Assembly: GCA_024137785.1 (NCBI GenBank)
Contig: JAHRHZ010000032.1
Coordinates: 13,453,768-13,504,732 of the forward strand
Length of the DNA stretch: 50,965 bases
Reading direction: 5' to 3'
From: Ginglymostoma cirratum
Taxonomy: Eukaryota
The notes beneath the pieces are model-generated. The model saw nothing but the letters and a program-made list of their open reading frames with translations. It searched no databases and was not told the origin of the DNA. A program made the position numbers and the translations under genes. The number at the start of each line of letters is the position of its first letter. The stretch's first letter is position 1. Below are positions 114 through 50,683 of the stretch, piece after piece.

Positions 114-1648
114 AGAGATGGTCTTATCTTTGATTCATACTATGGGAGTAGTGAGACTACATGAAGTAAAAACATAAGGATTTGATTTTAAGTACGAGTT
201 TAGCATCAAGGAAGAGACAATGTATGGTGCATAAGAAACATTCTGCATCCAATCTACCCCCAATACATTTCTGGACAGTGTTGTTTCCTTGAGATCAAAT
301 ATATTCAAATGTGCATCATCAAACCATCTGATTACCAGTATTACATGTTACCACAGCCAGGTGGAAATTCAACTTCACAGAATATTAATGAGCTGCAACA
401 TTAGCTGCAAAGGCAGACTTAAATATTTGAGTTGTATGGCATTTTCATTCACATAACAGGTTATATGCTTGCATATTTGCTTTTCTTATTGGAAAAATAT
501 ATTATTCCATTGGTACACTTGGCATGTAACCCTTGACAAGTATTATCTTTGTTCGTGTCTGTTTTTCATCCAATGTATATTACATGTAATGATCTATTCC
601 AGTGTTTAATTAACTCGCCTCCAGAAGTTTGCTGATGTGTGACTGTTTTATGACTTTATCTTGATGATTAGCACAACTATTATATCATGCTGCAATGATT
701 TTGCCAAGTCAGTTTGGATCATGTCACAGGACAGACAATAGTGCGACTCAAAGAGCCAAATATATGTTGCATAAATACAAGTTGCATTAAGCCAAACTTG
801 AAGAAAAAGTGAGGATGACATCAAATTATTGCAGCCAGCAATGAGTGCTCAATGGGCAGAGGTATGGCAAATAATCTTTGTGGATTTTCCCTTGACATCT
901 TCTCGTAAGGACAGAATTTCAAATATTGCAATTATGTCCTATTTAAAAGTTCCCTTTCCTTTCCTCATTACAGCTATCCTAAGTACTTAGGACAAAAAAT
1001 TGTTATGCACTTGTTTTTGAGGATGTGGTTTGCAATCACAAACAACCTGTGCTTGTTGCCATGGAAGGAGGCAGTATGGGAATCAACAGAATGATTTTAG
1101 CAAGTTGCACAGTGCACCCTGCTGACTGATTTCACGCACAATAAGGGGTCTGGTTTCAATTAGCTTGTTGCACTTTGAAACAATCTCTGCCTCTTAAATT
1201 CACAAGATTTGTAGCCTCTTACCTGTTCTTTTGACCATAGTATGGCTGTCCCTACATAAAATTCTGATTGTGGATATTTCAGGAATAGTAATGATGTTGA
1301 ATGTCAAGAGGAGATGATTTGATTGTGTTTTGTTGGAATTGGTTATTGGACGATACCTTGGTTGTGTTAATGTTACTTCAACCCATGACTGAATGCCATC
1401 AGATCTTGCTAGTTCTGTAGTCTGTTTGGCAGTGTGCCCTTCATATCTGGCAGTCTTAATCAGTAGTAGTGGTGCTACCAAATTACTTGTTCATAATGGC
1501 CACTGAAGTTCCTCACCCAGAATATGTTCTCAGTGCTATTTTCAAATGGTGTCCAACGTGGAGGAATGCTGATTCATCAGCTTGAAGAGTTGAGAGCAAG
1601 GTTGGGAGTTGGACTTAGTAAAATGCTTCCTTGCCTATATTTGATGTT

Positions 1649-1817
1649 GTCAAAAGTCACACAACACCATGTTATAGCCCAACAGGTTTCTTCCGGGGAT
1701 GAAGGGGCAGTGCTTCAACAGCTTGCCATTTCAAATAAACCTGTTGGACCGTGACTTGGTGTCGTGTGACTTCTGACCTGGTTCACCCAAGTCTAACACT
1801 GGGACCGCCACATCATT
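1649..1817. mobile_element. Fold-back mini-element, family C (older, internally deleted)
   Basis: Homologous to 9200-9415 in opposite orientation; 13-bp TSD TATTTGA(T/C)GTTGT at 1638-1650 and 1818-1830. Confidence 0.78.
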
Positions 1818-2075
1818 TATTTGACGTTGTGTTGGCACATTAGGGAAGGGAGAAGCACCAAAAAGACAAGCACTAAGAAGTTGGATAGGGTGAATAGTTG
1901 ATTTCTATTTAATTGTGAGTGGTGTGGATAAAGATGTTAGTAAGAAGGATTTGTTTGTTGCTCTTTTTTGTTGAATGGTGACAATGGGGATTCTGTGAAG
2001 TGAAATCTTAATTAGATGTGGCAGTGGTGAATCGCAGGCCTGTAGTGGTCAAAGAAAGCAACTTCATTAAAAACA

Positions 2076-2298
2076 GAGATAACACGGTGTAGAGCTGGAT
2101 GAACACAGCAGGCCAAGCAGCATCAAAGGAGCAGGAGAGCTGACGTTTCGGGTCGAGACCCTTCTTCAGAAAATGTCCTGACCTAGTCTGCTTAATGTCA
2201 GCTTTCCTGCTCCTCTGATGCTGCTTGGCCTGCTGTGTTCATCCAGCTCTACGCCGTGTTATCTCAGATTCTCTGGTATCGGCAGTTTCTACTATCTC
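2076..2298. mobile_element. Fold-back PLE-derived mini-element, family A
   Basis: Two outward-facing copies of the PLE 3' end; 15-bp TSD TCATTAAAAACAGAG at 2064-2078 and 2297-2311. Confidence 0.88.
2141..2169 (-). ncRNA. Minimal hammerhead motif in a fold-back mini-element
   Basis: CUGAAGA-A-GGGUC-UC-GACCC-GAAA-CGUC with a perfect 5-bp stem II. Confidence 0.75.
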
Positions 2299-3334
2299 AT
2301 TAAAAACAGAGTCTGGATTTGCATTCTTTCTCACCCCATCCAGAGAGACAGGGTGCACTCTGCCTCCATTTTTTTCTCCTCTTCCTCATCATTCTTTTCC
2401 TCCTCTTATTCTACCTCGTACTACTCCCAAAGGTCTCTAGACAGAGGCAAACATGGAGCATGCAGCAGGTTACTATGAGATTTGAAACCCACTCTGAAAT
2501 GAATTGTAAAGTTGTAAAAAGCAGTCAAGGAAGTAGAGGTCTGGCTTGAGCAGCCGGAGTCTCTGCTAAAACTTTGCATGACTCCTGCTCATCAATAATA
2601 ATATTTCAGCTTGGCTTGATAAACTCTCTTTTGGTTTTCTGCTCCTCCCAAGGTTTCTTGATAACCTTGTATGAACAATATGGGTTAGTGAAACTTCAAA
2701 AACATGTCCAACATCATCAATCCTTTTGGAATCCCATTTGGAGCAAGGAAAATCAATTGTTAAACGTGCCTATACCCAGCAATGTAGAATAATTGGCAGT
2801 CATCTATATTGTTTATCTTTGCAAATTTATTCCAGTAAATCTCAACACCAAGCAAAATTAGGAGGCGCAAGAATTATTTTTTGCATGAGATTGATAATTT
2901 TAAAAACTTAATTGAAGGCATTGAAAAGAAAATGCAACTTATTAGATGAATGTAATCATGTTATTGTAAAATGTTCAGATTTGAAATGTCAGTCACCAAG
3001 ATAAGCACAGCAAATGAAATGCTTTATCAGAGAACAGTCTGGCAATTCTTGAACGCAAGTGTTGCTTCACGGCATGGCAGTTGCTACAGTTAGTGTTGGT
3101 TTCACAGTTCATTAGAGTGCCACCAAGTGGTGTCTCAGGGCAGTATTGATATTTAACATTGAACTTCCCACTTAGTGTGATGCAATCATTAATCACAGAT
3201 TGGGGTCTAACAGGTATTTGTGGTTGGTAATTTTCATAGTTAACTGTTAGCATTTTCATATAGGAAAGCCTAAAAAAAAGTAACATTTCAAATGGGGTCC
3301 ACAACCTATGGAGATATTTTATTTTCTTCTTTCT

Positions 3335-5185: not shown

Positions 5186-6989
5186 TTCTGCTTCTACAGA
5201 AACACACAATATAGAAGAATGTCATACTGCCTGTGCTCGTGATTTAGTTGAGCTATCCAATTAGTTCCACATCTTAGCCTTTCTCCCATAGGCTTTCAAG
5301 AATTTATTTGAAAATTAATATTAATCTACTCTTCCCCTCATGCCACCTCTGTTTTTTGGCTCATTATCTTAAACTGTGTCTTTCTATTACTAGAAATGTT
5401 TTCTCCTACACTATTTGATGAAATTTCTGTAAGGTCCAACCAATCTAATGATGTCACACAATCTTGGGTGGTGAAAAGAGGAGTCTAGATTGAGATCCTG
5501 ATGGAGACAGATGTGTCATTGTTGTTTCCTGGCTAATCTTAGTTACTATACTAAACTATCCAATGTTGATTGTATCTATTGCTAGTGTGCTATTGCTATT
5601 GTGAAGGCAGGTGGTGCTCTAGTTAAAACTGATCAGTGGTTGAGCCTGTATTACTGTCAGCCAAATGGTCGCTTGGACTAAATATAGAAAAGAGGATTCG
5701 CAGCAGTACAGTGCACATAGCATGGGGATCTGGGTGAGATTGTTTCTTAAATATCACAAGTTAACAATGGTGAATAAAGTCCATTGCATCTAAGAGAAAA
5801 TAAATTTTAGAAGTTAAATGAGGTTACTGCTTTAAATACTTTGCCTCTTAAAGAATACTCATTAGACAGCACCTGCAAGTGCTTGTGCAAACAAGTAATT
5901 AGTGGAGTTGTGTAAGAAACAAGGCACTTCAGGCTAGAACCATCATTCAAACAAAATATGGGGCACAGAAGAACCAGGGTGAGATTTGGTATTTGACAGC
6001 CAATTTTGGACCTTTGTGAAGGAAGTTTAAAATCCCTGTTGGCAAGTAGATAATGGTTAAATTAATGATGCTAAAGACCAAGTCATGAAAATTAAAAATT
6101 AAAGAAGGAGTACTTATTGTTCGCAGTAGGTGCAGTGACCATGAAGCAGAGCTACTGTAGCAAAGTCAGGAGCCATAGAATTAAGTTACACTGGACTGCA
6201 GTATCAAGAATGTCATTGGGCTCATTTAATGTGATAAAAGGGCAATTTAAAAGCTAGAAGGGAGAGAGTCTAACAGAAGAAGATAGTTTGAAGTCTTTTA
6301 AATCAATAAGAATGGAAGATTAAAGCACAATTTTGCCAAGAAATGTTTTTAAGGCTGCAACCATAAAGCTTTTTTGGAAAGTAATGGAAGGGGATATGCA
6401 ATGTACTTCAGGCTGTGAAAGTTGGGAAAGTGTCCACTTGGTCAATGATAAAGTGGAAAACCTTTAACTTAGCTGCAGAAAGTGTGGAAAACTGTCACTT
6501 AACCTGCAGATGGCAGGAAACCACTACTTTGTGTGTAAAGATGTGGGAAATCCATTAGTAAGCCACACAGAGGTACTATATTGTTATTAAACAAAATTTA
6601 AAGCTTTATTAGAAAAAAAGATACAGAATTGCTACAATATATGATTTATAGCTTTAAAATAAGGAAATAATAAAGCCTTGTTTTAAAGCCTTGTAAGGTA
6701 AAGAAGATAAAACAGCATTGTATAATGTAGACTATAAAATCTATTTAGCAGAGACAGAAATGCAGCAGTGTTTAGATAAAACAGAAATTAAGACATCATG
6801 AAAGGATGAATCATAAATAATTACACCAAGAAGACAAGGCTGGAGATATAATAAAATTGCAGAGATTTAATTTCAGAGATGCGCCAAAGAAAACTCAATT
6901 CTGGATATCTTAGAGAAAACAATACTTACAGCACAGAATGTTTTTCAGCTTTAAATACTAAATCTGTAGTTGATTAAGTAAATACACTA

Positions 6990-7238
6990 AATGATAAAAA
7001 AAGACCCGTGGATGTTAGAAACCAGAAACAAAAACAGAAATTGCTGGGAAAAACTCAGCCAGTCTGGCAGCATCTGTGGCGAGAAGGCAGAGTCAACGTT
7101 TCAATTCCAGTGACCTTTGTTCAGAATGGAAGAATGGGTTCTGAAGAAGGATTACTGGATCCAAAATATTGATTCTGCTTTCTCTGCACAGATGCTGCCA
7201 GCCCTGCTGGGTTTTTCCAGCAATTTCTGTTTTTAAGC
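6990..7238. mobile_element. Fold-back mini-element, family B, inserted in Gypsy gag
   Basis: Inverted arms (AAAAACAGAAATTGCTGG...CCAGCAATTTCTGTTTTT) with decayed hammerhead cores; 14-bp TSD AAGTAAATACACTA at 6976-6989 and 7239-7252. Confidence 0.82.
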
Positions 7239-8570
7239 AAGTAAATACACTACTGTTTTCAATAGGACCTACAGCTGACAACATTCTCAATTTTCAAAAT
7301 ATAAAAGAAGGCACAGACACTTTTGAGTTGCTCTTCAACATTTTGACAATTAATTTAATCTGAATATAAACAAAAATCTTGAAATAACAAGAGTTAGTAA
7401 AGAAGTTCACTATCCAAAGGAATCAATAGAAAATTTCATTAATTATCTCCACAGATCAGTGGAAAACTTTGACTGTAAAGCTTTGAAATCAGATTTTGTA
7501 TGAAACCAAATAATTTTTGAATCATTGATAAGTTTTTGATACATCTAATAAGGTCCAAAGAAAATCTGACTTTGGGAAAGGCTATTCAAAATGTGGTGGA
7601 AGGAACCCTGCAAGAAAACAGAAACCATCCATATAGTATAAACATTCTCTAGGTACACATGACAAGGCATCATAAACAGTTAGTGCTGTAAATAATGTCT
7701 CACAGTTGCAAGTTGTACCAAGTTATGACATACGTATGCTACATCTGTAAAACTATAGGTCACTTCCAGAGGATGTGCAGAAGAAGGACCCAGTTTCAAA
7801 GCAGCAAAAAGCCCAAATTCTTACTCATTTTAATGCTACAGAAACATCAGCAGTAGGAAAAAGCATTCATAGAGTAAATTAGTAATTCAACTGACTGAAC
7901 TTTGACAGAACCTATTTGTGTTCATTGCCATCTCATTTTTTTTATCTTACTACAGGGGTCAGTCTCACTGTCTCATCAGTTGTCTCAAAGGTATTATCCA
8001 TTCCATAATGGATAGGAATACCTGATTGTATTTGCATTGCTGACCATATCATTGTTATGGGTGAGTTAAAGGCAGAGCATGAACACAATTTTCAGCTGCT
8101 GGTGACAGCAATTCAATTCAATTCAAAGGACTAACATTTAACAGAGTCAAATCAACATCAACCTGATAAACCTCTTTGGGTCTATTTATTTTGTCCAGAG
8201 AATCCATTCTATTCCAGTTAAGATTAAGGATAATTAATAAATGCTGACCCCACAGGATGAAGAGCATCTGCAATGTTGCCTTGAATCTTTTAAATTTCCT
8301 ATAGCTATACAATCAGCACCTTGCAGAAAAGGTTTTATCTGCTGAGGGATTAGCTCAAGAAAGACATCTCCTATATGTGGAAATACAACTACCAATATGT
8401 CTTTGCTTCTCTCAAGTAGGTTCTTTCAGCAAAATCTTTCTTATTGTAATACAATTACCCTAGAAAAGACATGATTCTCAAATCCAACGCATTGCAAAAA
8501 GTTTGCAAGACAAAAGACCTATTGCCTTGATTCTAAACCCTGCCATTTGCACAAGTATACATGTCTAGGA

Positions 8571-8885: not shown

Positions 8886-9199
8886 ACCAACTATTCCAAC
8901 ATTGAGGGTGAGACATCAAACCTGGAATTAGGCATCATGCAATTTCACATATACTTATTTTGCAGGAAATTTACCAATGAACCGGATCATAAGCCATCAG
9001 AAACAATATGTCACAAACTGCAAATAAGTGCAGGGCCATTTTTGCAGCGTTTACTTGTCAAGGGGTAAGGATATGACTTTGAAGTGAGATATAAGCCAGG
9101 TGCCAGAATGATTACGTAAACACTCACTGAGCAAATTACCCAATCGATAAAAGACCATGCTATTCCTTTTCACCTATATGGTGATGCTACAGATTATGA

Positions 9200-9415
9200 A
9201 GTGGAGGTGCCAGTGTTGGACTGGGGTGGACAAGGTCAGAAATCACATGACACTGGGTTATAGTCCAACAGGTTTATTTGAAAATATAAGCTTTTGGAGC
9301 CTCACTCCTTCTTCAGGTGTTGAATAGTCAACACCTGAAGAAGGAGTGAGGCTCTGAAAGCTTGTATTTTCAAATAAACCTGTTGGACTATAACCTGTGT
9401 TGTGTGACTTCTGAC
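9200..9415. mobile_element. Fold-back mini-element, family C
   Basis: Near-perfect palindrome 9235-9323 / 9328-9415 with a 4-nt loop (ATAG), plus a ~35-nt unpaired tail on the left. Confidence 0.85.
9335..9364 (+). ncRNA. Hammerhead motif, family C (mirror copy at 9288-9316 on minus)
   Basis: CUGAAGA-A-GGAG-UGAGG-CUCU-GAAA-GCUU. The mirror copy has CUCC-AAAA, implying an ancestral CUCCGAAAGCUU. Confidence 0.68.
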
Positions 9416-10416
9416 ATAGACATTTAAGGTGAAGATCTTCTCAAGGTGATTAGATTTTGGGCACAGCCAGAGTGAACAGTTGAAATTAGAAACTGCCAGA
9501 GATGATCAACTATAAGACTTACATGAGAACATTATTTATGCCATGGCCTGACAGTACTAAATAAGCGTATGAGGCAATTCCTTCATTTTGGTCATAGAAG
9601 GACAAACTTGGTATATTGTGTCAGTTCATCTTCAAGAGCAAACAAGGTCGAATATCAAAAGCATTCTGCCAAGATATGACATCCATGTTATACCAGGAAC
9701 ACATGGTTATAGTACACACAAGTCAGCTAGCACACGAATCTGTGCACTGGCCAGGGATAATTCAAGGTATTCAATGACTTGCATGTGACTAATGCCAAAT
9801 ACATCAAACCTAGCATTGAAGGGAATCTCTTTATCCACATGAAGTTCCTTCCATTCCTTGGACAAAAGTAGCAACAGAACTATTCAGACTATATGGGGAA
9901 TCTTACATCTTTGTGATGGATTACTTCTCTCAATTTCCCATGGTTCAACAACATAACAGTGCAATAAGCATTACCATTGCTGATACACTGAATATTATTT
10001 TCAGTTTATTTAGTATTGCAGATCAAATACAGTCTAACAAAGGACCACAGCACATTGGCAAACCATTTCAAGATGTACACTAAGTAGGGAGTAATCCATA
10101 TTATACCATCACCTATCTACTGATGCTCATATGGTCTAGCAGAACATACAATTCATACTATTAAATCAATGATCATTACTGCACCATCTGCAAAGCAAGA
10201 TTTTCACATTGCATTACTGCATGTTGTGCCACACCAATGGAGAAGGGATTACCATCTAGAGCATAATTTATACTCAGAAGGCAAGTATAAACCCCACTTT
10301 GCATAGCAAATAAGACATTCTTCTTGAAAGACAAATGAGAATTAAGCAGATGGAGGAGCTAGGAGCAAGTAGATAACTACCACAAATGTGCACTGAACAG
10401 ATGGTGTGAATTAGAA

Positions 10417-10643
10417 CAAAGTTGCTGGAAAAGCTCAACAGGTCTGGCAGCGTCTGTGAAGGGAAAAACAGAGTTAATGTTTCGGGTCTGGTGACCCTTC
10501 CTCAGAACTAGTCCGGGTCACCGGACCTGAAATTTTAACTCTGCTTTCTCCTTCACAGATGCTGCCAGACCTGATGAGCTTTTCCAGCAACTTTGTTTTT
10601 GTTCCTGATTTACAGCATCCGCAGTTCTTTCAGGTTTTATTTA
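10417..10643. mobile_element. Fold-back mini-element, family B
   Basis: Inverted arms; 13-bp TSD GTGTGAATTAGAA at 10404-10416 and 10644-10656. Confidence 0.85.
10474..10505 (-). ncRNA. Hammerhead motif, family B
   Basis: CUGAGGA-A-GGGUC-ACCA-GACCC-GAAA-CAUU-AAC. Confidence 0.68.
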
Positions 10644-11221
10644 GTGTGAATTAGAAAGATAAATACGAATATTTGGATATGTGCAAAGGTTTCAAGAATA
10701 ATGTAGCTACACTGTGAAGGAACAGAAGCTAGCTCAGAGCAATGTAAAGCCCACCAATCAGACATAAAGGGAGTGAGGAAGAATAGTCCAAGAATGATGA
10801 TTTTGTGATGATGTTGAGTGATAGCAACCAGCAGCAAGACAACCAAATTGTCAAACAAGTGCAAAAGACAACAGTGCGTATCTCTTTAGGCAGGTATACG
10901 ATCAACAGAGTAAGATAAATTGTTAAAAATTCAAAGGCTTACATTGAAGTTTAAAATGTTAGCCTTGTAAACTGTTTTTACCTGTTTGTACAATTATTAA
11001 AATGGTACAGATACAATCATGTATGTCTGTTTGGGATTTATTTTTATCTAAGGAACAAGTGAGATGTGTCATGTCTCACAGCCAGTCTGTTAGTATACTT
11101 TTAAGAGACATGCTCATGATATCAGCACCACATCATAGTATGGGAGCCAACAGTAAAAGAGCTCAGACTCTATCTTACCTCAGATCACTCTCATGCAACT
11201 ATGTTTCTCTCTTATAACATT

Positions 11222-16993: not shown

Positions 16994-17029
16994 TTTTCTG
17001 AAGAAGGGTTTAGGCCCGAAACGTCAAGT
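16994..17029 (+). ncRNA. Minimal hammerhead motif
   Basis: CUGAAGA-A-GGGUUUAGGCCC-GAAA-CGUC-AAG. Confidence 0.75.
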
Positions 17030-17125
17030 TTTCCTGCTCCTATGATGCTGCTTGACCTGCTGTGTTCATCCAGCCCCATGCTTGTTATCTCGGATTCTCC
17101 AGCATCTGCAGTACCTTTTTATCTC
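16994..17125 (+). mobile_element. PLE 3' terminus fragment with hammerhead motif
   Basis: CTGAAGAAGGGTTTAGGCCCGAAACGTCAAG through the tail TTTTATCTC. Confidence 0.88.
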
Positions 17126-17713
17126 TGATACCATTAAACAACCAGTCTGACGAACGACATAACAGTGAAATTTGACTACAAAATTGCACAAAATATTATT
17201 TGATGCATGGTTATTTTTGCTATATTATGTTGTAAATCAATGATAATAATTGCCCAGGATTAGAACATTTTATTGTTGATTATTTCTGTAGAAAAGTTCA
17301 GAGACATCTGTAAATGCTAAAGTTTCGTTTTCCAAAGCTGTTAAAACCATAGTTGATTATGAGAAAGTTTACTGGGTGGAGCAAAGGTCCTGTAAGGATT
17401 CTGGGTGAAAGTAGATTTGGCAATCACAACTAGCAAATACACTGATGTTAATCATTTAAAAAAAAAACTCCGATTTTTGGTATCTCCATGCAAACACCAG
17501 TAAAACTTCACGAATAAAAATGAACTCTCAGAAAGTTATTAACTAAACTTTATAATTCATGTAATCCTGATATATATCCTCTCTAATTATGCTTATTATT
17601 TCTGTACATTAATATGTTCATTAGTGACTTAAACCTCTTCATTTCCTTTTCTTCCTTAAAATTCTTTCCATTGATCTAGATTTTCTTCATCTTGCCTGAC
17701 AGATAACATACCC

Positions 17714-17921
17714 GAGATAACAAGGTGTAGAGCTGGATGAACACAGCAGGCCAAGCAGCATCAGAGGAGCAGGAAACAAGCCCAAGGAGCAGGCCTTCCA
17801 GGCCTGGAAGGCCCGAAACGTCAGCTTTCCTGCTCCTCTGATGCTGCTAGGCTTGCTGTGTTCATCCAGCTCTACACCTTGTTATCTCAGATTCTCCAGC
17901 ATCTGCAGTTCCTACTATCTC
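17714..17921. mobile_element. Fold-back PLE-derived mini-element, family A, intronic in the Ig gene
   Basis: Inverted arms; 15-bp TSD CAGATAACATACCCG at 17700-17714 and 17921-17935. Confidence 0.88.
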
Positions 17922-18680
17922 AGATAACATACCCGCTCTGGCTCAGTCTCTATTTTTCACTATTTATTCACACATCATTCTTTCTGTACGGACAAATAAC
18001 TGCCTTCCCACAGATTTCCACCAAGCTGAGGGCAAACTTGAAAGAGAATCCTGACAGAAATTAACAAAGACTTTCAAGCATTTTCTCTCATCATTCATTG
18101 CCTTTCAGTAAATCTATATTGGCGTATCAATTGTTTAATAAGTAACCACATTTCATGACTAAATTTCATAGTGGGGCCTGTTTTTAGAGATCAATTCCAT
18201 TGTGGGTATTTACAACATTGGGTTATTTTTCTTTAAGTTAATTCTTGGGTGTGAGTATTGCTGACAAGAACAACATTTATTGCACACATATCATTGCCCT
18301 AACTGGTGTTGGAGTTTGTGAGAAACTTTGTCTTGAATTGCATAGCATTTTGATACAACTGAATGACTTGCTAAATCATTTTTGAGGGCAGGTAAGAATT
18401 AAGTAAATTAATTAGGTACTATAGTTCTCAAATGGTAGATAGGGATTGCAGGTTTACTCACTAAAGCGTATTAGAGAACTAATTTTTTGACATTTCAACA
18501 ATTTCAATTTATTTTACTGATTCCAGTTTATTTTCTCTATTTATACTTTTTAAACAAGATATTTTAATCAATGTTTATTTTTGTCACCTATTGGTTCCTG
18601 ATTAGTACCTAGCATAGAACAATATTTTGTTTTGCATTCTCAGTCACGTAGCTATCCATTTTTATTTTGTCTCCACTTAC

Positions 18681-24004: not shown

Positions 24005-24902
24005 TGTCTTCAAAGATAATGAGTATCCTTAATCTACTGAGTTTCTCCAGTAATTTCTGTTTTTGTTTCAGATTTCCAGCATTAGCAGTTTTTTTTTAAA
24101 GTGAGTCTCCTTTTGTTTTGTTCAATTTGGATTTTAATTTACGGGTTTGCTAGTTATGTTTCCTTTAAATTGGAGGTGGGGGGGAAACAGTTGACACCTG
24201 TAAGTTTCTGCTGGCGCTGGTACATGGCTTATCTCACTTAATCCTGATGGATTCGTTGCAAACAAACAGAAGCGCCAAAGAAATAAAATGGTTTGATTCT
24301 CCTTGGTTTCTCCCGGTCGAATAGCCTGCGTGGAGTTTAAAGGTTGCAGTTAGGATTATTTGGCCGGCGTCTCTGCAACTTAATTTCTATAATGTAATGA
24401 TTGATGCCCTTCATAGTAATTCATGATATGGAAATAGTGAGCTAATAATCATTGATGCGGTAAAGTCGGTTCCAGGATGAGGTTACTCAAGTAAATAAGG
24501 TTCTCAGTAACACTGTAAGATGAGAATCTCAGTTTTGCTGTTTAGCTCAGTCTTTCTGTCTCCTGTCTCCAACCACTGCAGTTCTAGAAGTGACAAGTAA
24601 TGGACTGAGCAGTAACTTTTCATGAGGGAGAACATAGATCTTAGCTGGTCTGTTGTGTAATCCAGGTTTTGTTAAAAGTGCAAATGCAAACTACGAGGCC
24701 CAAGCAAAGACATCTCAATAATGTCAGAGCTATCCTCCAAGAATTCAATTCCCGCACAATCTACATTGATAGGCACCGCTGATGTTTCTCACCACTTACA
24801 ATCGTGTTTCCCCAATGCCAATGATTCATTGCAATTCGTTCCATGGAGTGTTATTAAACACTCCTTGAACGTCTCGAACGACATTGAACACACAATACTT
24901 AC

Positions 24903-25250
24903 CGATCACGTTCACGATAATGTCCTTGGTGAACTGGTCTCCATTCCAATTTGTCACTGTGCAGGAATATGTCCCGGAATCATGCGATGTCACATTCTGG
25001 ATGGAGAGCGAATGGTTCGGGTAGATTTGTGCCCGGTGCAAGTAGCCGCTGAACCAATGGGTATTCCATTTCTCTTCTTCTGACATTAACTGGACGATGG
25101 AGCGCCGGGTGTTGGTGCTCACATACTTCCACTCCACTGTGTGCACCTGGTCAGTGATACTGGCGAAGGACACTTCCAGGAATATGTTCCCATTAACTTT
25201 TCCAATGACAACCTTGGGGCTGGCTCCAGCGGCCGCTGCTTGCAGTACAA
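24903..25250 (-). CDS. Exon 2: Ig V-set domain, CD2/SLAM/CEACAM-N-like
   Basis: Acceptor TCTTTTTCAG, donor G|GTAAGT, 348 nt, phase 1-1 and open. Shows C-strand VEWKY, SLSIQNV and F-strand DSGTYSC. B-strand Cys absent (NIFLEVS), as in CD2-family N-domains. Confidence 0.92.
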
Positions 25251-25877: not shown

Positions 25878-25970
25878 GAGATAAAAGGTACTGCAGATGC
25901 TGGAGAATCCGAGATAACAAGCATGGGGCTGGATGAACACAGCAGGTCAAGCAGCATCATAGGAGCAGGA
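25878..25970 (-). mobile_element. PLE 3' terminal fragment (~93 bp)
   Basis: Reverse complement of window 21-113. Confidence 0.88.
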
Positions 25971-27149
25971 GCGCTGCTGACAACTACAGAAGGAATTCCT
26001 CAGAAGTTTGGGAAGATTCCTTCCGCTTTAGAGAAATCACAACTTATCTGCCTTTTTTTTGGGGAAGTTCTTCATTGGCAGAAATGACTTCAGTAGCTCC
26101 ACAAATCCTCATCCTACCCCCACCCAATTATTATTAAATAGCGCTGGAGAGAGAAATTCCTCGACTTGCTCGCGCGCTGAAAATTGTGATCAATGATTTC
26201 GTTAAAAACAGTTGAAGTCGAATTCGAACGATTGACATATCATTTATAAATTACAAAAGGTTATCGCGTGGAAATGTTAAAAATCAATTTACAAACCGCA
26301 GGGGAGGTGGAAACAGATTATTGGAGAATTAACTTTTAGAAACTTTTTTGGAAATCGGAGTTCAGGACAAGAATATAAATTTCCAAGTACTCATACTAAC
26401 GAATGAAATTATTTTTCAGAGGTGATGATAATTAGTAAATGCAAAGAGATTTCTAGTGAGCCTGACCAGACCGAGATGAGAAAGTCGAGCACCACTTGTA
26501 TCTGACAGCGAATGGAACGTAATCAAATTGGTGAAAAATAAGACTTTCAGCTCCTGAACATTTAAATTTACAAAGGATTGAGTTAAATGCATGCACTAGC
26601 TAAATATTTGGTTTGAGCTGCTGAGAGCAACGCTATGTGCCTATGACGTGTCACAATTCTATTCTGGAAAGGAAGTTGTGTTGCTCAGATGTTGCATCCT
26701 GCCAAAAGCACTAGTTGCTACATATCAGCAACACTCAACACCAGATTAATTGTTTTTTTTTGTCTGAAAGCTATTTCAGATTGCTAAGCAACTGTTTAAC
26801 TTTAAGCCTTCTTCATGGCAAACCACAAAAATTCACATTTCTAAATTCGGTAATAATTAAGAAATCCCAAAAGGATGAGCCACAACTGATGTGTTTAACA
26901 ACGTTAAGCCAGTACAAACCCCGAATAAGTTGAAATATCTCATTTGACCATTTCCACATTGGCTGCACTACAATGAATACATAATGGCCACTGCTTAATG
27001 TAATGCCACTGAATAGCAAGACATCTAACCAATTTATAGGCAAACATTCAGAAATGAGACAAGAAGGGGAAGGAGTAAGTACAAAGGATTTTACCGAAAA
27101 AACTTTAAAGAAAAATGGTGTATGAATATGCAAAGTAGCATTTTTAAAA

Positions 27150-29856: not shown

Positions 29857-31273
29857 ATTTATCCCTGGTTTTGTTGTCATGGCATTACGTCTTTCCTTTC
29901 TACCATGCTCCGGGCACTGGCTTGAGAGTTGGGTGTAGGATGGTAGAAGAGTATAAAGACTAAGCAAAGCCTGCCTGGGACTAGAATGTAAATATTCCTT
30001 CTTTGAACACTTATCTCAACGTAAATCGTATATTCTTTAATTATTTTATCATCTGATTCCATTCGTAACATTAATTTAAATCCCGTTGGGGCTAAATTGG
30101 ATAGCTTACAAAATTGGATGCAGGCTGCAGTACTGAAAGAAGGTTAATGACCTCCAATGAGTGCTCAAAGTCAATGAACAATGTCTCATGTGCCATATCC
30201 TAGCATTGTACCAGTAGACTCTAATACAGCTCAATGCCTTATTTAGCAAGAAATCTTCTATAAATCATGTACTGAGTGAAGGGCAAAGCAGGAGAAAGAA
30301 ATCCTTCTGGTGGTAATTAAAGACAACAGCATTACAAGGGTGGAGTTCATAATCTTAATGTGAACCATCATGGTAAAGTTAAGTTGAGTTTGGGGTGTAC
30401 AGTATTTATGGCACTAAAATCATTGAAATAGCAGAGATGTTTGTACAAAAAGTGTTGGTAAATCAGAACTATATCGACATGCATCGATATGGGTGCAGGT
30501 TGTTTCTTAACGAGCAGAGATGCACACAAGAATGAATTTAGTGATGTATCATGTATTACATTATATAAAATACACACTACTGATCTTTGAATTCCAATTT
30601 AATACCTGGGAGCTTTGTGGAATGATTTTAAAAAGAGACCAAAAACATTGATTTAAAATGGCCACAGACATCATTTGATCCACAGAAGTTTGAACACAGA
30701 AGTTTTTTATGAAACCAACATGAATTAGGTCAAAGACCTAATCTGAGCTGAAACTGACTTATTTGCAATAAAACCAGTCATCAAACCCCTCCTCCGCTCC
30801 CCCCCACTGGCAGATGTCTAAAGGTCCTACCCTCCTCTTTGATTTATACCATTATAAGAATCTTCACATGTTGAAGATACACATCACCTACAATTATCAA
30901 ACTTGAACGTAATGAGCTTAGCAACTGGTATACACAACAAAGCTGCTTTCCAACAATTTTATTTTTCTCAGGGTTAGCAGGTAATAAAGATACCTTTGTT
31001 ACTCAAGACAAACTTGTGAGTGGCTACTTATGGAAATATTACAAATTAGTTAACTGCAGTAAGTCCAGAAGGCGTTAGTCATAAACCTTAACAACTTAAC
31101 CCTTCGGTGCAACAGACCAAGAAGATTGAAAAGAAGAAAGTTGGCTCAGCCCTGCTCATCTGGTCATAACACAGGAGGAGATAAAAGGTACTGCAGATGC
31201 TGGAGAATCCGAGATAACAAGGCGTGGGGCTGGATGAACACAGCAGGCCAAGCAGCATCATAGGAGCAGGAAA

Positions 31274-31309
31274 TCTTGACGTTTCGGGCCTAGACCCTTC
31301 ATCAGAAAT
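31274..31309 (-). ncRNA. Minimal type I hammerhead ribozyme motif in PLE terminal repeat
   Basis: Minus strand reads UUU-CUGAUGA-A-GGGUC-UA-GGCCC-GAAA-CGUC-AAG: conserved core, stem II, palindromic ACGU in place of stem III, GUC cleavage triplet. Confidence 0.8.
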
Positions 31310-31858
31310 GGGGGAGGGGAAGAGGGTTCTGAAATAAATTGGGAGAGAGGGGGAGGTGGAAAGAGGATGGATAGAGGAGAGGATAGGTGGAGAGGAGGCA
31401 GACAAGTCGAAGAGGCGGGGATGGAGCCAGTAAAGGTGAGTGTAGGTGGGGGGGTAGGGAGGAGATAGGTCAGTCCAGGGAGAACCGACAGGTCAAGGGG
31501 GCGGGATGATGTTAGTAGATAGGAGATGGGGGTGGGACTTGAGGTGGGAGGAGGGGATAGGTGAGAGGAAAAACAGGTTAGGGAGGTGGAGATGAGCTGG
31601 GCTGATTTAGGGATGCGGTTGGGGGAGGGGAGATTTTGAAGCTTGTGAAATCCACATTGATACCATTGGGCTGCAGGGTTCCCAGGCTGAATATGATTTG
31701 CTGTTCCTGCAGCCTTCGGGTGGCATCACTGTGGCATTGCAGGAGGCCCAGGATGGACGCGAACCATTTCAACTCCCCCTCCCATTCCTCAGACTAAACA
31801 ACTGCACATCCCAGTCGCGAACCATTTCAACTCCCCCTCCCATTCCTCAGACATCCCT

Positions 31859-33343
31859 ACCTAGGTCCGTGACACCACCCACGCCCTCCACCTCCTCCAG
31901 AACTTCCAATTCCCCGGTCCCCAACACCTCATTTTTACTATGGATGTCCAGTCCCTATACACCTGTATTCCCCATGCAGATGGCCTAAAGGCCCTCCGCT
32001 TCTTCCTGTCCCGCAGAACTGACCAATCCCCCTCCACCGACACCCTCATCCGCTTAGCCAAACTCGTCCTCACCCTCAACAACTTCTCTTTCAATTCCTC
32101 CCACTTCCTACAAAGGGGGTGGCCATGGGTACCCGCATGGGCCCAAGCTATGCCTGCCTCTTTGTAGGTTACGTGGAACAATCCGTCTTCCGTACCGACA
32201 CTGGCCCTAAACCCCACCTCTTCCTCCGTTACATTGATGACTGCATCGGCGCCGCCTCGTGCTCCCACGAGGAGCTCGAACAGTTCATCCACTTCACCAA
32301 CACCTTCCACCCCAACCTGAAGTTCACCTGGACCATCTCCAACACTTCTCTCTCCTTCCTGGACCTCTCTGTCTCCATCTCAGGTAACCACCTAGAAACC
32401 GATGTCCATTTCAAGCCCACTGACTCCCACAGCTACCTAGAATACACCTCCTCCCACCCACCTTCCTGCAAAAATGCCATCCCCTATTCCCAATTCCTTC
32501 GCCTCTGCCGCATCTGCTCAGGATGAGACATTCCACTCCCGTGCATCTCAGATGTCCTCATTCTTCAAGGACCGCAACTTCCCCCCCACAGTGGTCGAGA
32601 ACGCCCTTGACCGTGTCTCCCGCATTTCCTGTAACACATCCCTCACGCCCCGTCCCCGCAATAATAACCAAAAAAGAATCCCCCTCGTCCTCACGTACCA
32701 CCCCACCAACCTCTGGATCCAACGCATCATCCTCCGACACTTCCGCCATCTGCAATCAGACCCCACCACCAAAGACATTTTTCCCTCCCCACCCTTACCT
32801 GCCTTCCGGAGGAACCACTCCTTCTGCGACTCCCTTGTCCGCTCCACACTCCCCTCCAGCCCCACCACACCCCGCACTTTTCCCTGCAACCGCAGGAAGT
32901 GGTACACCTGCCCCCACACCTCCTCCCTCACCCCAATCCCAGACCCCAAGAAGACTTTCCACATCAGGCAGATGTTCACCTGCACATCTGCCAATGTGGT
33001 ATACTGCATCCGCTGTACCCGTTGTGGCTTCCTCTACATCGGGGAAACCGAGCGGAGGCTTGGGGACCGCTTTGCAGAACACCTGCGCTCAGTTCGCAAT
33101 AAACAACTGCACCTCCCAGTCGCAAACCGTTTCAACTCCCCCTCCCATTCCTCAGACGACATGTCCATCCTGGGCCTCCTGCAATGCCACAGTGATGCCA
33201 CCCGAAGGCTGCAGGAACAGCAAATCATATTCAGCCTGGGAACCCTGCAGCCCAATGGTATCAATGTAGATTTCACAAGCTTCAAAATCTCCCCTCCCCC
33301 AACTGCATCCCAAAATCAGCCCAGCTCATCTCCACCTCCCTAA
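31859..33343 (+). pseudogene. PLE RT + GIY-YIG endonuclease ORF, frameshifted near 32110 and 32520
   Basis: ORFs 31940-32167, 32119-32526 and 32474-33343 together give consecutive RT and EN motifs in different frames. Confidence 0.92.
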
Positions 33344-33594
33344 CCTGTTTTTCCTCCCACCTCAAATTCCACCCCCATCTCCTATCTACTAACATCATCC
33401 CGCCCCCTTGACCTGTCTGTCCTCCCTGGACTGACCTATCTCCTCCCTACCCCCCTACCTACACTCACCTTTACTGGCTCCATCCCCGCCTCTTCGACTT
33501 GTCTGCCTCCTCTCCACCTATCCTCTCCTCTATCCATCCTCTATCCGCCTCCCCCTCTCTCCCTATTTATTTCAGAACCCTCTTCCCCTCCCCC

Positions 33595-33630
33595 ATTTCT
33601 GATGAAGGGTCTAGGCCCGAAATGTCAAGC
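33595..33630 (+). ncRNA. Hammerhead motif copy in PLE 3' end
   Basis: CTGATGAAGGGTCTAGGCCCGAAATGTCAAG; CpG decay in the ACGT palindrome. Confidence 0.7.
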
Positions 33631-35309
33631 TTTCCTGCTCCTATGATGCTGCTTGGCCTGCTGTGTTCATCCAGCCCCACGCTTTGTTATAACACAGGGG
33701 GAACTGTTTTATCTTTTGATCTGCATTTAACTCTGAGTTGGATTGGGAGATGTTGGATGGTTCTGACTTACTTGAATAGTCACCCAGGAAAGATTAGAGG
33801 GCTTAAGACCAACTCCAACTCCTGAGTAACTATGGAACTGATCCCCTCCTGTGACCCAGCCTGATCGTCTCAACAACCTATGCCTATCTGAAACCTTTTT
33901 CCCTTGACACACTCTGATATACATCTGTCCTGACTCAAGCTAACCAATGAATTTCCCCAGAACCATTTGAAAACTCCCTGACCTCCCTGACCTGAATCCA
34001 TGACTCCCCATGGTCCAAACAGCCCCAAACTCACCACCTGACTCCTCCCTTGATCTGACCCAACTACTGCCTGACCCTGCCTACTCCTCACCCACCTCCC
34101 ACTTATCCCCACTTCACCTGCCACATCACCACTCTACCCACTTGCCACTCTACCCCGATACCAATCTGCCACCTTATGCATCTATAACCCACGCAACTGA
34201 ATCGCTACCAACCTAATAACCTACTCATCACCTCCATATTGACACGTCTACTTACCTAGGTATGATCCTATCCCACTGTCACCCTATCCCCTTACCTCAG
34301 CCTCTCCACCCCCTTACCCATTTACCTCTCTCACTCACACTCATTCATTCATTCAAATTAATATTGAATGGGAAATAAGAAATAAAAACTAATGACGCTG
34401 GGAATTATTAAGTAACAATGTTATTAAGTGAATAAATAAAAATGAGAAAAAACATTACATTTACAATGAGTCAATAAAAATATCATTAAATGTTTAAAAG
34501 AAACAGGAAAATATAAGCTATGTAATTTCTGAAAACATGCTACACAAGTTTCATGCAACTTACCTTGAGTTTCAATCCTTGTCCACTGCTGCCCTTTAAT
34601 GGACATTTCAAATTTTCAACTGTTGGTGAGAAAAGGGTATGGAATAATTCTCCTGTGCTGTGTTGAGGAGTATCTAACTTGAAGAGCTAGACACTTCAGC
34701 AAGCAGCCCGCTTTGGAACTGTGACCTAAGCAGGGAGATTTTCCGACAATTGGCAGTGATCAAAACAGTTCTGATGCCTATCTAAAGTTCTAGCCAATAT
34801 CTGTTGAAAGTAGTATTTCAAAGTAAGTAGCAAATAGTAAGTCAGTACACTTCAAGGAGACTGCAGTAGTAAGACAAGTGAACACAGGTCAAACTAGTAG
34901 GACTAATGGAAAGTTCTTTAGCTACAAGGTAATTAACTCATGGCTTGGCCATCTGAAAAATTTAAAATGGGAGCACCATTGCTCTTGTTATCATCAAAAT
35001 AGTTATTTCTACTCATTTCAAGGGGAAGTTCACCCAATAAGTGTGGATTAATGTTCAGACTTACGCATGCACATATACCCTCCAAGGCAGAAGATTTGTC
35101 TCAGTGATGGATAAAATAAGCCCTCCCAGCAGACTCAGGCCACCAGTAGAGGACCCAGACCCAACTGAAGATGCAGGTGAACAATCCTCTGTGCTCCACA
35201 AGTTAATTGCTACAATTTACTCACTGCAACCTCAAACTCACGGGGCCTTCACACAGTCTAATTCAGCTGCTATACAGCCATGCTGATTTCAGCTTCACAT
35301 GTTTTACAA

Positions 35310-45456: not shown

Positions 45457-46381
45457 TCCTTTGTGATTTGCAGCATCTTTGAATCAGTTTCCAGGAGTCG
45501 AGGTGAGATTCTCAATAGGGAGCAGTGAGTTGCCTATTAAGGGGATTATTGCTTGTTGATTACCTTATTAACTGCACATCAACCTTATTAGTATGCAGCT
45601 TCCTGTCTGATTACCCATCATGAGCGAACTAAATGCCAAGAATTCTTGAAATGGAAGTCAGAATGTCTACCTGTCAGCTTTGGTCTGCTATTGGCTGTAA
45701 AGAGCTGCCATGTTGGTCACCAGGCAACAGCATCTCAGGGCATGATCCATGGGCATCAGCCACATATAAACCCTCAGAAACAGACACTGGCATCTGAGAA
45801 TAGCCAACCCCTCATGATACTCATCGCACCTCTACGTTTTACTGGTTCTTGAAAGAACTATGCAAATATTCCCATTCTCCAGCTCTTTCACCATAGCCCT
45901 GCAAACATTTCCTATTAAATACTTATTAAATATTGTTGGAAAGTAAGCATTGAATCCACAATCATTTTTGGCAGTCCATTTCAGATCATAACTTCTCACT
46001 GCATTGTTTTATATTACTTTGGTTATTTTGTCAACAGATCTGCAAAAGTCTGTTTCCACCCTGTATAACTCTATTTACTTATTCAAATCATGGTATAACT
46101 TTGAGTACCTCTATCAACCCTTTCCTTAACTTGTTCTTTACAGCCAATAGCAGACCAAAGCTGACAGGTAGACATTCTGACTTCCATTTCAAGAATTCTT
46201 GGCATTTAGTTCGCTCATGATGGGTAATCAGACAGGAAGCTGCATACTAATAAGGTTGATGTGCAGTTAATAAGGTAATCAACAAGCAATAATCCCCTTA
46301 ATAGGCAACTCACTGCTCCCTATTGAGAATCTCACCTCGACTCCTGGAAACTAATTGAAAGATGCAGCAAATCACAGAGGA
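45457..46381. repeat. Long inverted repeat, arms 45457-45703 and 46135-46381
   Basis: 45486-45703 is the exact reverse complement of 46135-46352 (218 bp by eye); the outer ~29 bp have 4 mismatches; spacer 431 bp. Confidence 0.95.
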
Positions 46382-46427
46382 CTGACAAAAACTGCCATCT
46401 CATCTCCAGTTACATCGTCCTCTGTGT

Positions 46428-46835: not shown

Positions 46836-47180
46836 CACAGAACCGGGAGCTGTTGAAAGGTTGGGGAAATGTCTTATTCTGCAGTTTAAGCATTGTTAAG
46901 AAGAGCTTCTCTGGTAAAAGTACCATAAGGACTCATGTGGGTGAGACATTGTGCTGGACAACCAACGCTACCCTTGAAAAGGATTTTGACTCACTTGCAG
47001 AATCTTCAGTCTTTCTCAGCTTTTCAAAATTTGCACTTTAAATGATCAGATTTGCCAGAACAGTATTCATGTGCAACATGGTGTATTGTTTAACGAACTG
47101 GAGTGGGTATGCAAATAACTGATATTATTGTTTACAGCAAATTCAATTCTAGAGTGATTTGACTGGCAGTTTAGCATCAT

Positions 47181-50100
47181 ATATAAATAGAGAGAGGGGG
47201 AAGCGATGATAGAAGGTGGATAGAGGAGCAGATAAATGGAGAGAAGACGGATAGGTCAAGGAGGTGGGGATGGAGCCAGTCAAGGTGAGTATAGGTAGGG
47301 AGTTGGGATGGGGGTTGGTCAGTGAGGAGGGAGGGGCGGGTAGGTGGGAGGGAAGACAGACAGGTCAAGGAGGTAGGGATGAGGCTCGTAGGTAGGAAGT
47401 GGGGGGGCGTTGGTCAGTGAGGAGGGAGGGGCGGGTAGGTGGGAGGGAAGACAGACAGGTCAAGGAGGTAGGAAGTGGGGGTGGGGTTGCTTAGTCAGGT
47501 GGGAGGAGTGGATAGGTGGGAGAAAAGACGGACAGGTCAAGGAGGCAGGGACGAGATGGGCTGGTCTTGGGATGAGGTCGGGGGTGGAGAGATTTTGAAG
47601 CTAGTAATGTCCACATTGAGACCATTGGGCTGCAGGATTCCCAGGTGGAATATGAGGTGCTGTTCCTCCAGCCTTCGGGTGGCATCGTTGTGGCACTGGA
47701 GGAGGCCCAGGATGGTCATGTCGTCGAAGGAATGGGAGGGGGAGTTGAAGTGGTTCGTGACTGGGAGGTGTTGTCTTTTGTCACGAACCGAGCATAGGTG
47801 TTCCACAGAGTGGTCTCCAAGCCTCCACTTGGATTCCCCGATGTAGAGGAGGCCACATCGGGAACAGCGGATACAATATACTAGGGAGTTGCAGAGACAG
47901 CGGTCCCTCCGGAAGGCAGATAAGGGTGGGGAGGGAAATATATCCTTGCTAGTGGAGTCAGACTGCAGGTGGCGGAAGTGGCGGAGAATGATGCATTGAC
48001 TCTGGAGGTTAATGGGGTGATATGTGAGGACAAGGGGAATTCTGTCTTTGTTGTTATTGTGGGGAGGGGGTGTGAGGGTTGAGGTGCGGGAAACGCGAGA
48101 GATGCGGTCGAGGGCGTTTTCGACCACTGATGAGAGGAAATTGCGGTCCTTGAAAAATGAGGACATCTGGGATGTTGGGGAGTGGAACGCCTCATCTTGG
48201 GAGCAGATGCGGCAGAGGTGAAGGAATTGGGAGTAGGGGTTAGCGTTCTTGCAGGAAGGTGGGTCAGAGCAGCTGTATTCTAGGTAGCTGTGGGGGTCGG
48301 TAGGCTTGAAATAGATATCAGTTTTCAGGTAGTTACCAGAGATGGAGACAGAGAGGTCCAGGAAGGAGAGAGAAGTATCAGAGATGGTCCAGGTGAACTT
48401 GAGGTTGGGGTGGAAGGTGTTAGTAAAATGGATGAACTGTTCGAGCTCCTCATGGGAGCATGAGGTGGCGCCGATACAGTCATCGATGTAATGGAGGAAG
48501 AGGTGGGGGATAGTGCCAGTGTAGCTGTGGAAGAGGGACTGTTCCATGTATCCTACAAAGAGACAGGCATAGCCTGGGCCAATCGGTACCCATGGCCACC
48601 CCCTTTGTCTGTAGGAAGTGGGAGGAGTTGAAGGAGAAATTGTTAAGTGTGAGGATGAGTTTGTTTAGGCACATAAGTGTGTCGGTGGAGAGGGACTGGT
48701 CGGGCCTGCGGGAGAAGAAGAAGCGGAGGGCTTTTAGGCCATCTGTATGGGGAATGCAAGTGTATAGGGACTGGACGTCCATTGAGAAGATGAGGTGTTG
48801 AGGGCCAGGAAATCGGAAGTTTTGGAGGAGGCGGAGGGTGTGGGGAGTTCCTGGACCGGGTGGAGAAAATGGAGTCGAGATAAGTGGAGATGAGTTCGGT
48901 GGGGCAGGAGCAGGTGGAGACGATGGGTCGACCAGGGCAGTCAGGTTTGTGGATTTGGGGAAGCAGATAGAAATGAGCGGTGTGGGGTTGGGGAACGATG
49001 AGGTTGGAGGCTGTGAGTGGGAGGTCACCTGAGGTGATGGTGTTGTGGATGGTCTGGGAAATGATGTTTTGGCGGTAAAGGTGGGATCATGATCAAGGGG
49101 GTGGTAGGAGGAGGTGTCAGAGAGCTGGTGCCTGGTCTCGGCGACGTAGAGGTCAGTGCGCCATACTACAACTGTGCCTCCCTTGTCCGCGGGTATTATG
49201 GTGAGGTTGGGGTTGGAGCGGAGGGAACGGAGGGCTGCACGTTCTGTGTGGGAGAGGTTGGAGTAGGTGAGAAGTTGAGGCGATTGATGTCACAATGGCA
49301 GTTGGAGATGAAGAGGTCGAGAGAGGGTAGGAGGCCTTGGGATGGTGTCCAGGAGAAGGGAGTGTGTTGGAGGCAGAAGGGGCCAGTAGAGGGAGGGTTA
49401 GACACACGATTAAAGAGATAAGCGCAGAGGCAGAGGCAGTGGAAAAACTGTTTGGTGTCCAGGCGTGAGCAATATTCGTTGATGTTCGGGTGGAGGGGGA
49501 TAAAAGTGAGTCCTTTACTGAGGACTAACCGTTCATCCTCAATGAGGGGGAGGTCTGGGGGGAGGTGAGGGGGTTTTCTTGGATCCTCCCCCATCACCTC
49601 CATCCCAGTCCCCAAGAAAACCTTCCACATTAAACAGATGTTCACCTGCACATTCACTAATGTCGTATACTGTATCCGCTGTTCCTGATGGGGCCTCCTC
49701 TACATCGGGGAAACCAAGCGGAGGCTTGGAGACCGCTTTGTGGAACACATATGCTCGGTTTGCGACAAACGACAGCACCTCCCAGTCGCGAACCACTTCA
49801 ACTCCCCCTCCCACTCCTTGGACGACAATTCCATCCTGGGCCTCCTCCAGTGCCACAATGATGCCACCCGAAGGCTGGAGGAATAGCACCTCATATTCCA
49901 CGTGGGAATCCTGCAGCCCAATGGTCTCAATGTGGACATTACCAGCTTCAAAATCTCCCCACCCTGACCTCAGCCCAAGACCAGCTAATCTTGTCCCCGC
50001 CTCCCTGACCTGTCCATCATTTCTCCCACCTATCCACTCCTCCCACCTCACTGACCAAACCCCACCCCCACTTTCTACCCACTAGCCTCATCCCTGCCTT

Positions 50101-50441
50101 CGTGACCTGTCTGTCTTCCCTCCCACCTACCCGCCCCTCCCTCCTCACTGACCAACCCCCATCCCAACTCCCTACCTATACTCACATTGACTGGCTTCAA
50201 CCCCGCCTCCTTGATCTGTCCATCTTCTCTCCACCTATCTGTTCCTTTATCCACCTTCAATCATTGCCTCCCCGTCTCTCTATTTATTTCAGAGCCCCCT
50301 CCTCCTCCTCCATTTCTGAAGAAGGGTCCAGACCCAAAACATCAGCTTTTCTGCTCCTCTGATGCTGCCTGGCCTGCTGTGTTCATCCAGCTCCACACCT
50401 TGTTATCTCAAACTCCAACATCGGCAGTTCCTCCTATCTCT
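47181..50441 (-). mobile_element. Second Penelope-like element: long minus-strand arm (47181-~49582) and inverted plus-strand 3' arm (~49583-50441)
   Basis: Minus-strand ORF pieces LSKGLTFIP, MDVQSLYTCIPH..GVAMGT, LHYIDD and LVYCIRCSRCGLLYIGES. The plus arm repeats the EN end and 3' terminus. Perfect 14-bp TSD CAGTTTAGCATCAT at 47167-47180 and 50442-50455. Confidence 0.95.
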
Positions 50442-50683
50442 CAGTTTAGCATCATGACATTTGTGTGAAAAAGAAATTGTCAGAGTTGAAGGTGTACTGG
50501 TGACAAGTGACCACCAGATGGTGGAACAGTCATACACTACCTATATCAGAGTCTTGTTTATTTATACCAGTTCACAAGATCGAGTAAATGCAAAAGGACA
50601 TGAGGCTCTAATTATTCACCAAAACTATCATTGTTATCAGCATCATGACTGTAATGTTGAATGGGCAACTAGATGGACTCTGT

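Follow-up and report, generated by a model that had tools for sequence, protein, structure and literature searches.

Introduction

Insertions that combine an inverted copy, a one-sided tail of 30-40 bp and a target site duplication (TSD) have already been published for Penelope-like elements (PLEs) (PMC3846280, PMC8557442, PMC2377424, PMC8969392). The same signature is analysed here in a stretch of 50,965 nucleotides of the shark Ginglymostoma cirratum (contig JAHRHZ010000032.1, positions 13,453,768 to 13,504,732; hereafter the window), and as such it is known. The complex insertions of endonuclease-bearing (EN+) PLEs, described for Pen2a_Av of Adineta vaga (PMC3846280) and in Fig. 2 of PMC8557442, are single cases with TSDs of 8-10 bp, and the relevant passages of both papers suggest antisense self-priming or EN-mediated resolution, not priming from both target ends. 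For Poseidon_Ac (PAc) of Anolis, the in vitro work describes cleavage and extension of both strands, AT-rich targets, a hammerhead in the terminal repeat of the partial-tandem unit (pLTR), a predicted dimer and two adjacent internal reverse transcription (RT) start sites bounding the tail (PMC11167929). The main text of that paper gives neither a stagger length nor complementary site use at the two ends of one insertion, and PLE integration after first-strand initiation is described as unvalidated (PMC11167929, PMC8557442).

The shark insertions consist of two inverted arms and range from short hairpins (minis) to kilobase elements. In LINE-1 twin priming, both target 3' ends prime reverse transcription and the inversion lies inside a TSD of about 15 bp, the arms being non-overlapping parts of one RNA and one of them starting at the poly(A). 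The shark arms, in contrast, are overlapping inverted copies of the same region, with two fixed internal sites and no poly(A), which does not conform to LINE-1 twin priming. As compared to the cases of PMC3846280 and PMC8557442, the TSDs have a mode of 14 bp over 89 elements, and both the pairing of arm types and a wall of arm 5' ends have been counted. These counts indicate that the head-to-head insertions of EN-bearing PLEs probably arise from nicks about 14 nt apart, with both 3' ends priming at two internal sites. What is added to the known signature is quantitative support for two-ended priming at complementary internal sites, together with a likely explanation of the minis. No count of complementary start-site use, no 14-bp stagger and no shark run-off minis were found in the literature searched, although reviews and supplements outside it may already hold some of this; the part of a 2026 retrozyme preprint that was available (10.64898/2026.07.22.740005) mentions neither sharks nor tails.

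Results

Insertions in the window

The sequence-only reading of the window had proposed seven TSDs of 13-15 bp, and all seven were found at the proposed coordinates and lengths, five exact (2064/2297, 6976/7239, 10404/10644, 17700/17921, 47167/50442) and two with one mismatch (1638/1818, 31166/33689). A 13-mer with at most one mismatch occurs near two random window points in 4 of about 20,000 trials. Each TSD pair encloses two inverted arms with their 3' ends outward, and exactly one arm of each insertion carries the full tail. The partner arm, which had been said to stop about 35-45 nt short, does so by 33-46 nt in six insertions (1638, 39 nt; 2064, 33 nt; 6976, 43 nt; 10404, 46 nt; 17700, 33 nt; 31166, 36 nt), and by about 153 nt, far from the other six, in the seventh (47167). 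The insertions are as follows.

1..113 (+): tailed arm of family B, young, truncated at the start of the window
1638..1830: family A two-arm mini; TSD 1638-1650 and 1818-1830 (one mismatch); left arm tail-less, right arm tailed
2064..2311: family B two-arm mini; TSD 2064-2078 and 2297-2311; left arm 33 nt short, right arm tailed
6976..7252: family C two-arm mini; TSD 6976-6989 and 7239-7252; tailed arm on the left, right arm ending about 43 nt early
9196..9415: family A two-arm mini; left arm tailed, right arm tail-less; no TSD found
10404..10656: family C two-arm mini; TSD 10404-10416 and 10644-10656; left arm 46 nt short, right arm tailed
16995..17126 (+): lone tailed arm of family B, starting at the putative RNA 5' end; no TSD
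17700..17935: family B two-arm mini; TSD 17700-17714 and 17921-17935
25878..25982 (-): lone tailed arm of family B, without TSD
31166..33702: young family B two-arm element; TSD 31166-31179 and 33689-33702 (one mismatch); left arm tailed, 583 nt; right arm tail-less, 1933 nt
47167..50455: older family B two-arm element; TSD 47167-47180 and 50442-50455; left arm about 2.4 kb (about 2365 nt, minus strand), about 153 nt short; right arm about 0.9 kb (about 895 nt), tailed
50670..50965 (-): edge element spanning about 6.2 kb, represented by a 15-bp TSD and its tail-less arm (50685); tailed arm and second TSD past the window end

Of the two-arm insertions, 1638 and 9196 belong to family A, 2064, 17700, 31166 and 47167 to family B, and 6976 and 10404 to family C. 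The minis of all three families are terminal repeats of PLEs, and long A and C copies also run into pieces of open reading frame (ORF). An optional tail of 30-40 bp and an inverted 5'-truncated copy, as in EN+ PLEs, are both found here. The signature is seen in the edge element as well. Other insertions, absent from the sequence-only reading, do not fit it, namely the mini at 9196-9415, which has both arm types and no repeat longer than 5 nt at its ends, and the single arms at 16995-17126 and 25878-25982.

Target site duplications in the genome sample

The sample comprised 882,774 unmasked bases from eleven regions of the genome, including the window, plus targeted loci. TSD lengths are maximal, chance overlap included. 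For the histogram, duplicates were removed and L160 was dropped (8-bp repeat far from any arm end); the 89 two-arm elements retained include six of the window. The mode (n=29) and the median are both 14, with 61 elements at 13-15 and 77 at 12-17, in support of the stagger of about 14 bp proposed earlier. A TSD was found in 34 of 53 random-sample pairs against 13 of 530 shuffled controls, and the control for targeted loci gave 8/760. Among the unpaired arms, 29/162 have a TSD (control 36/1620), of which 11 are tailed, 16 tail-less and 2 other.

That the repeats are true target duplications, as had been assumed, is supported by paralogous empty sites, where the target is itself a repeat: a single TSD copy is present in 17 of 20 testable cases, and the remaining 3/20 are without the expected overlap. 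Among orthologous sites, contigs of two related organisms enter the insertions 1638, 2064, 6976 and 10404 from the flanks and none is empty; these four insertions are therefore shared. Base preference at the target is symmetric, each strand mirroring the other (r=0.63, 0/5000 permutations), with A enriched 7-8 nt outside each target edge (-8 in 88/178, -7 in 95/178). Among junctions of non-negative overlap, the overlap is at least 3 nt in 9 of 52 at tailed and 12 of 47 at tail-less ends, where a rough geometric estimate, not a simulation, predicts about 6%; overlap is zero in 13 tailed and 21 tail-less junctions. Microhomology priming is thus occasional and not required.

PLE arms were also observed within the pLTRs of other PLEs (C into B, C into A), in the R_C32_77928 region upstream of the window and in others. 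For these nested insertions the empty site is present in 210 paralogous matches, consistent with cleavage in pLTRs.

Arm 3' ends and their pairing

Mapping of the arm ends, which the sequence-only reading had recommended, yielded bimodal 3' ends in all three families, at 0 and about -33 in B, 0 and about -40 in C, and 0 and about -39 in A. The 53 inverted pairs comprise 40 tailed+tail-less, 2 tailed+tailed and no tail-less+tail-less combinations, besides 11 in which one arm ends at neither site; window elements account for six of the 40 mixed pairs. Independent choice of site predicts 21 mixed pairs of 42, and 40 of 42 were observed (p ~2e-10). This agrees with the proposal that the two target 3' ends start at two different fixed sites. 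Either site can be used alone, since single arms with a TSD end at both, and the same site is almost never used twice in a pair, as the pair counts demonstrate.

The full tail had further been noted on the shorter arm of both large window elements, which is correct for these two (583 vs 1933 nt; about 895 vs 2365 nt). The rule is nevertheless rejected, since it applies to 7 of 14 long tailed/tail-less pairs, namely 5/7 long unmasked pairs of the random sample and 2/7 copies anchored deep in the ORF. This count rests on 20 of the 39 listed long copies and on the random sample. Loci anchored on the tail (1.5-kb flanks) lean to a shorter tailed arm, and were left out as a biased set.

Both start sites are internal

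Beyond the tail of the tandem copy L284/L303, the element continues into the 5' untranslated region (UTR) and reaches an ATG about 39 nt later, which opens an N-terminal ORF that L282 and L291 have as well. The bases at +1 to +3 after the tail in 155 family B copies are T in 67%, G in 53% and A in 62%, matching the continuation of L284/L303. Because the element continues past its tail, both start sites are internal, and the earlier suggestion that one of them is terminal does not hold. Both tail boundaries of the anole element are likewise internal RT start sites in vitro (PMC11167929).

Side observations were made on the tail and its surroundings. The tail of families B and C resembles a degenerate repeat of the preceding ~33-40 nt (in B, CCAGC...TATCTC occurs twice), and the two units may represent tandem protein-binding sites. 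L303 has a splice-donor-like GTGAGT after the family B tail and an AG 34 nt later, just before the ATG, a distance too short for a usual vertebrate intron. Breaks are frequent in long family B copies (L282-L300) at a low-complexity region of the N-terminal ORF that is rich in Ala, Thr and Pro and forms a second hotspot of truncation.

Arm 5' ends and minis

Arm 5' ends lie at most 12 nt upstream of the motif CTGANGA in 25/106 B and 46/86 C arms of the random sample, and in 33/88 B and 14/29 C arms of the targeted loci. Few B and C arms end just upstream of this pile-up and many are scattered downstream of it. In long copies the pile-up point corresponds to an initiator-like A, in CCATTT (B), TCAGTT (C) and TCACT (A), and a TATA-like box lies 31, 29 and 31 nt upstream of it in B, C and A, respectively; in B and C the A precedes CTGANGA by 4 nt. 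In the window this arrangement is seen at the following position, with a putative promoter role.

33564..33605 (+): putative pLTR promoter and RNA 5' end; TATTTA at 33564, initiator-like A at 33595 (31 nt downstream), CTGATGA at 33599-33605 as hammerhead-like core

A TATA/initiator pair has been noted in a rotifer pLTR (PMC3846280), and a TATA-less promoter is given for D. virilis (PMC2377424). The majority of arms terminate at the putative RNA 5' end, which lies ~100-135 nt away from the start sites; the earlier placement of priming in the RNA 3' region hence applies to the long arms only. The junctions of 47 of 48 minis are distinct. The pile-up of 5' ends at the initiator-like base and the difference among mini junctions suggest that the minis likely arose singly, as run-off cDNAs of the transcript's 5' pLTR copy, and do not form a family of mini-elements. 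The minis are similar in size because the start sites lie at a constant distance from the 5' wall.

On mapping two RNA runs to a full-structure copy, no position emerged at which molecule starts were numerous; the mates were balanced between strands and the depth was mostly that of pLTR copies (in X22, ~13,000 vs 200-400 over the 5' ORF). Of 15 RNA fold-back joints listed, five end at the predicted +1, and these joints are likely genomic minis within host transcripts. The minis at 9272-9379, 2108-2233 and 17736-17865 have sub-threshold Rfam microRNA matches with E down to 1e-8, which constitute an annotation trap; all 16 Rfam matches are to sub-threshold microRNA families.

Identity of the elements

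Judged by their domain and motif content, the window elements are PLEs with a C-terminal GIY-YIG domain and a linker of the Neptune/Nematis type. The GIY-YIG assignment, already made in the sequence-only reading, is borne out by a Pfam match.

32441..33340 (+): broken ORF piece with C-terminal GIY-YIG (Pfam PF01541, E 1.6e-5); RT motif YIDD upstream in another frame

The motifs YIDD, ADKG and LSKG occur upstream of the EN in the expected order, on ORF pieces that are broken. A Pfam RT match was absent on these pieces and no intact ORF was obtained. The two ORF copies of the window are 56% identical over 275 aligned residues. A GIY-YIG with two internal cysteines (VYCIRCTRCGFLYIGET-type motif) is present in the window and in 3/8 long loci, and is broken in the others. 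A CX4CxxC linker (CNRRKCYTC-type) was found in 5/8 long family B loci, with equivalents in one C and one A locus; it is mutated or deleted in both window copies, the linker region being deleted in the long arm of the 47167 element.

A CX2-5CxxC linker is ascribed to Neptune and Nematis and not to Poseidon (PMC8557442). Penelope/Poseidon membership, for which the linker would have to be absent, was rejected since it is present. The C-terminal GIY-YIG with internal cysteines, the CX2-5CxxC linker and the DKG motif are common to the shark elements and the Neptune (and Nematis) clade as described in PMC8557442. The microsatellite insertion bias given there for Neptune is not apparent in the TSDs inspected here, with one GA-rich case. 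PAc, with which the shark elements have AT-rich targets and two internal start sites bounding the tail in common, belongs to the Penelope/Poseidon clade and has its tail inside the ORF (PMC11167929), whereas in family B the CX4CxxC linker is present and the tail precedes the likely ATG by about 39 nt.

The partial-tandem organisation of L284/L303 consists of pLTR, tail, continuation, ATG, N-terminal ORF and a second pLTR at the 3' end. A hammerhead-like CTGANGA...GAAA core with a 4-nt palindrome was recognised by eye in the pLTRs of A, B and C, and is a putative ribozyme; the motif is described in PMC4209133, which covers the ribozyme. No Rfam hammerhead match was obtained at E<=1, and the minimum free energy fold was without a hammerhead.

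Other features of the window

The arm junction of the young 31166 element (31758-31859) contains a duplication of ~37 nt of its own EN region, which suggests template jumps while the arms join. The 47167 element has tandem duplications of 95-97 nt in the 3' UTR of both arms (47292-47549; 49994-50176). At 45453-46385, two inverted arms of 251 nt, 98% identical, surround a 431-nt spacer; a third copy of the arm lies ~12 kb past the window end (100% over 239 nt), matches elsewhere are weak (65-75%), and the structure looks like a recent local rearrangement and not a PLE. An immunoglobulin V-set reading frame at 24829-25329 on the minus strand (PF07686, E 1.4e-8) is probably an exon of a host Ig-superfamily receptor gene.

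Discussion

Probable two-ended priming at internal sites

For the head-to-head insertions, it is probable that the PLE protein nicks both target strands ~14 nt apart, the TSDs recording the stagger. Reverse transcription would then be primed by both exposed target 3' ends, at two distinct internal sites separated by 33-40 nt, and the two cDNAs would be joined at their 3' ends via microhomology or a few filler bases. In this order of events, starts in the 5' pLTR copy of the transcript would let the cDNAs run off the RNA 5' end, taken to be the transcription start, after ~100-135 nt and so yield hairpin minis, and starts in the downstream pLTR copy would yield variably truncated kilobase arms. 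Single-arm insertions may represent events with extension from one primer only. The TSDs, the bimodal and complementary arm ends, the continuation past the tail, the 5'-end wall and the unique junctions are the observations behind this scheme.

A more specific form, on which the evidence is evenly poised, is an asymmetric two-slot complex, in which one nick would be coupled to the distal RT start and the opposite nick, at a distance of 14 nt, to the proximal start. Two first-strand cDNAs would be made with no separate second-strand priming, and starts in the 5' pLTR would give cDNAs of the strong-stop kind that run off to the TATA-initiator start.

The scheme might draw on one RNA molecule or on two. 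At non-CpG polymorphic sites, the two arms of a pair are in agreement in 358 of 408 cases (88%), where 244 are expected if the arms are unrelated; agreement is 95% at near-invariant sites, and most pairs share a haplotype. A difference between the arms in 7/7 cases at one site was discounted, since these loci had been picked by a query with the rare allele.

Alternative explanations

The alternative that survives best, close to published suggestions but in our judgement unlikely, is that only one target end primes on the RNA, the inverted arm is copied from the first cDNA by fold-back self-priming or template switching, and EN trims the tail from one arm as the intermediate is resolved. One-sided tails would follow naturally, junction palindromes have been read as self-priming (PMC3846280), and the tail has been ascribed to EN-mediated resolution (PMC8557442). 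In the shark, several mini junctions overlap by a 7-nt near-palindrome, and the agreement of partner arms at 358/408 sites is also in keeping with such copying. A copy, however, cannot outgrow its template, yet the arms reach different points and either may be the longer (7 vs 7). Filler bases are often present at the centre, single arms stop at the tail-less site no less frequently than at the tail, the arms of L274 are of different haplotypes, and in vitro, internal starts were observed directly at both tail boundaries (PMC11167929).

The two target ends could also be primed by independent RNA-protein units, each with free choice of site, the pairing rule then arising from later selection or repair. 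The lower agreement of arms at polymorphic than at near-invariant sites (88 against 95%) and the few pairs that differ at linked sites (L274, L199) speak for this explanation, but part of the discordance is an artefact of locus selection by a rare-allele query. Since free choice predicts ~21 mixed and ~10 tail-less+tail-less pairs of 42, where 40 and 0 were observed, independent units appear very unlikely. That the short hairpins, alike in size (~170-260 nt) and very abundant, form a self-propagating non-autonomous family mobilised as units, like miniature inverted-repeat transposable elements (MITEs) or short interspersed elements (SINEs), is highly improbable, as 47 of 48 junction configurations differ with no fixed internal junction and the ends and TSDs of the minis recur on kilobase elements and single arms.

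Evidence at odds with two-ended priming

Several results weigh against priming from both target ends at complementary sites. A TSD is missing from 133/162 unpaired arms and 19/53 pairs; these cases are partly due to age or missed partners, yet clean two-ended events are not universal. TSD lengths of single arms spread wider, from 8 to 20 nt. One arm ends off both sites in 11/53 pairs, and the targeted locus L233 is tailed at both ends of an insertion with a 12-bp TSD. The 5' ends of family A (n=22) cluster at -15 and at -5 to -3, not at the predicted -8, and no pile-up of molecule starts was detected at the predicted +1 in the two RNA runs mapped. L274, a verified insertion with arms of two haplotypes, is left without explanation by a strict single-RNA model. 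For the anole element in vitro, start sites that differ between the two strands were not observed (PMC11167929).

Implications

Three numbers emerge that are testable in the existing in vitro system, viz. a stagger of ~14 nt, the strict use of complementary start sites and run-off at a defined 5' end. In genome annotation, the hairpins, which are abundant, can be mistaken for MITEs, SINEs or microRNA precursors. If the asymmetric two-slot complex is real, the flood of ~200-bp hairpins in shark-type genomes would be explained without a non-autonomous family.

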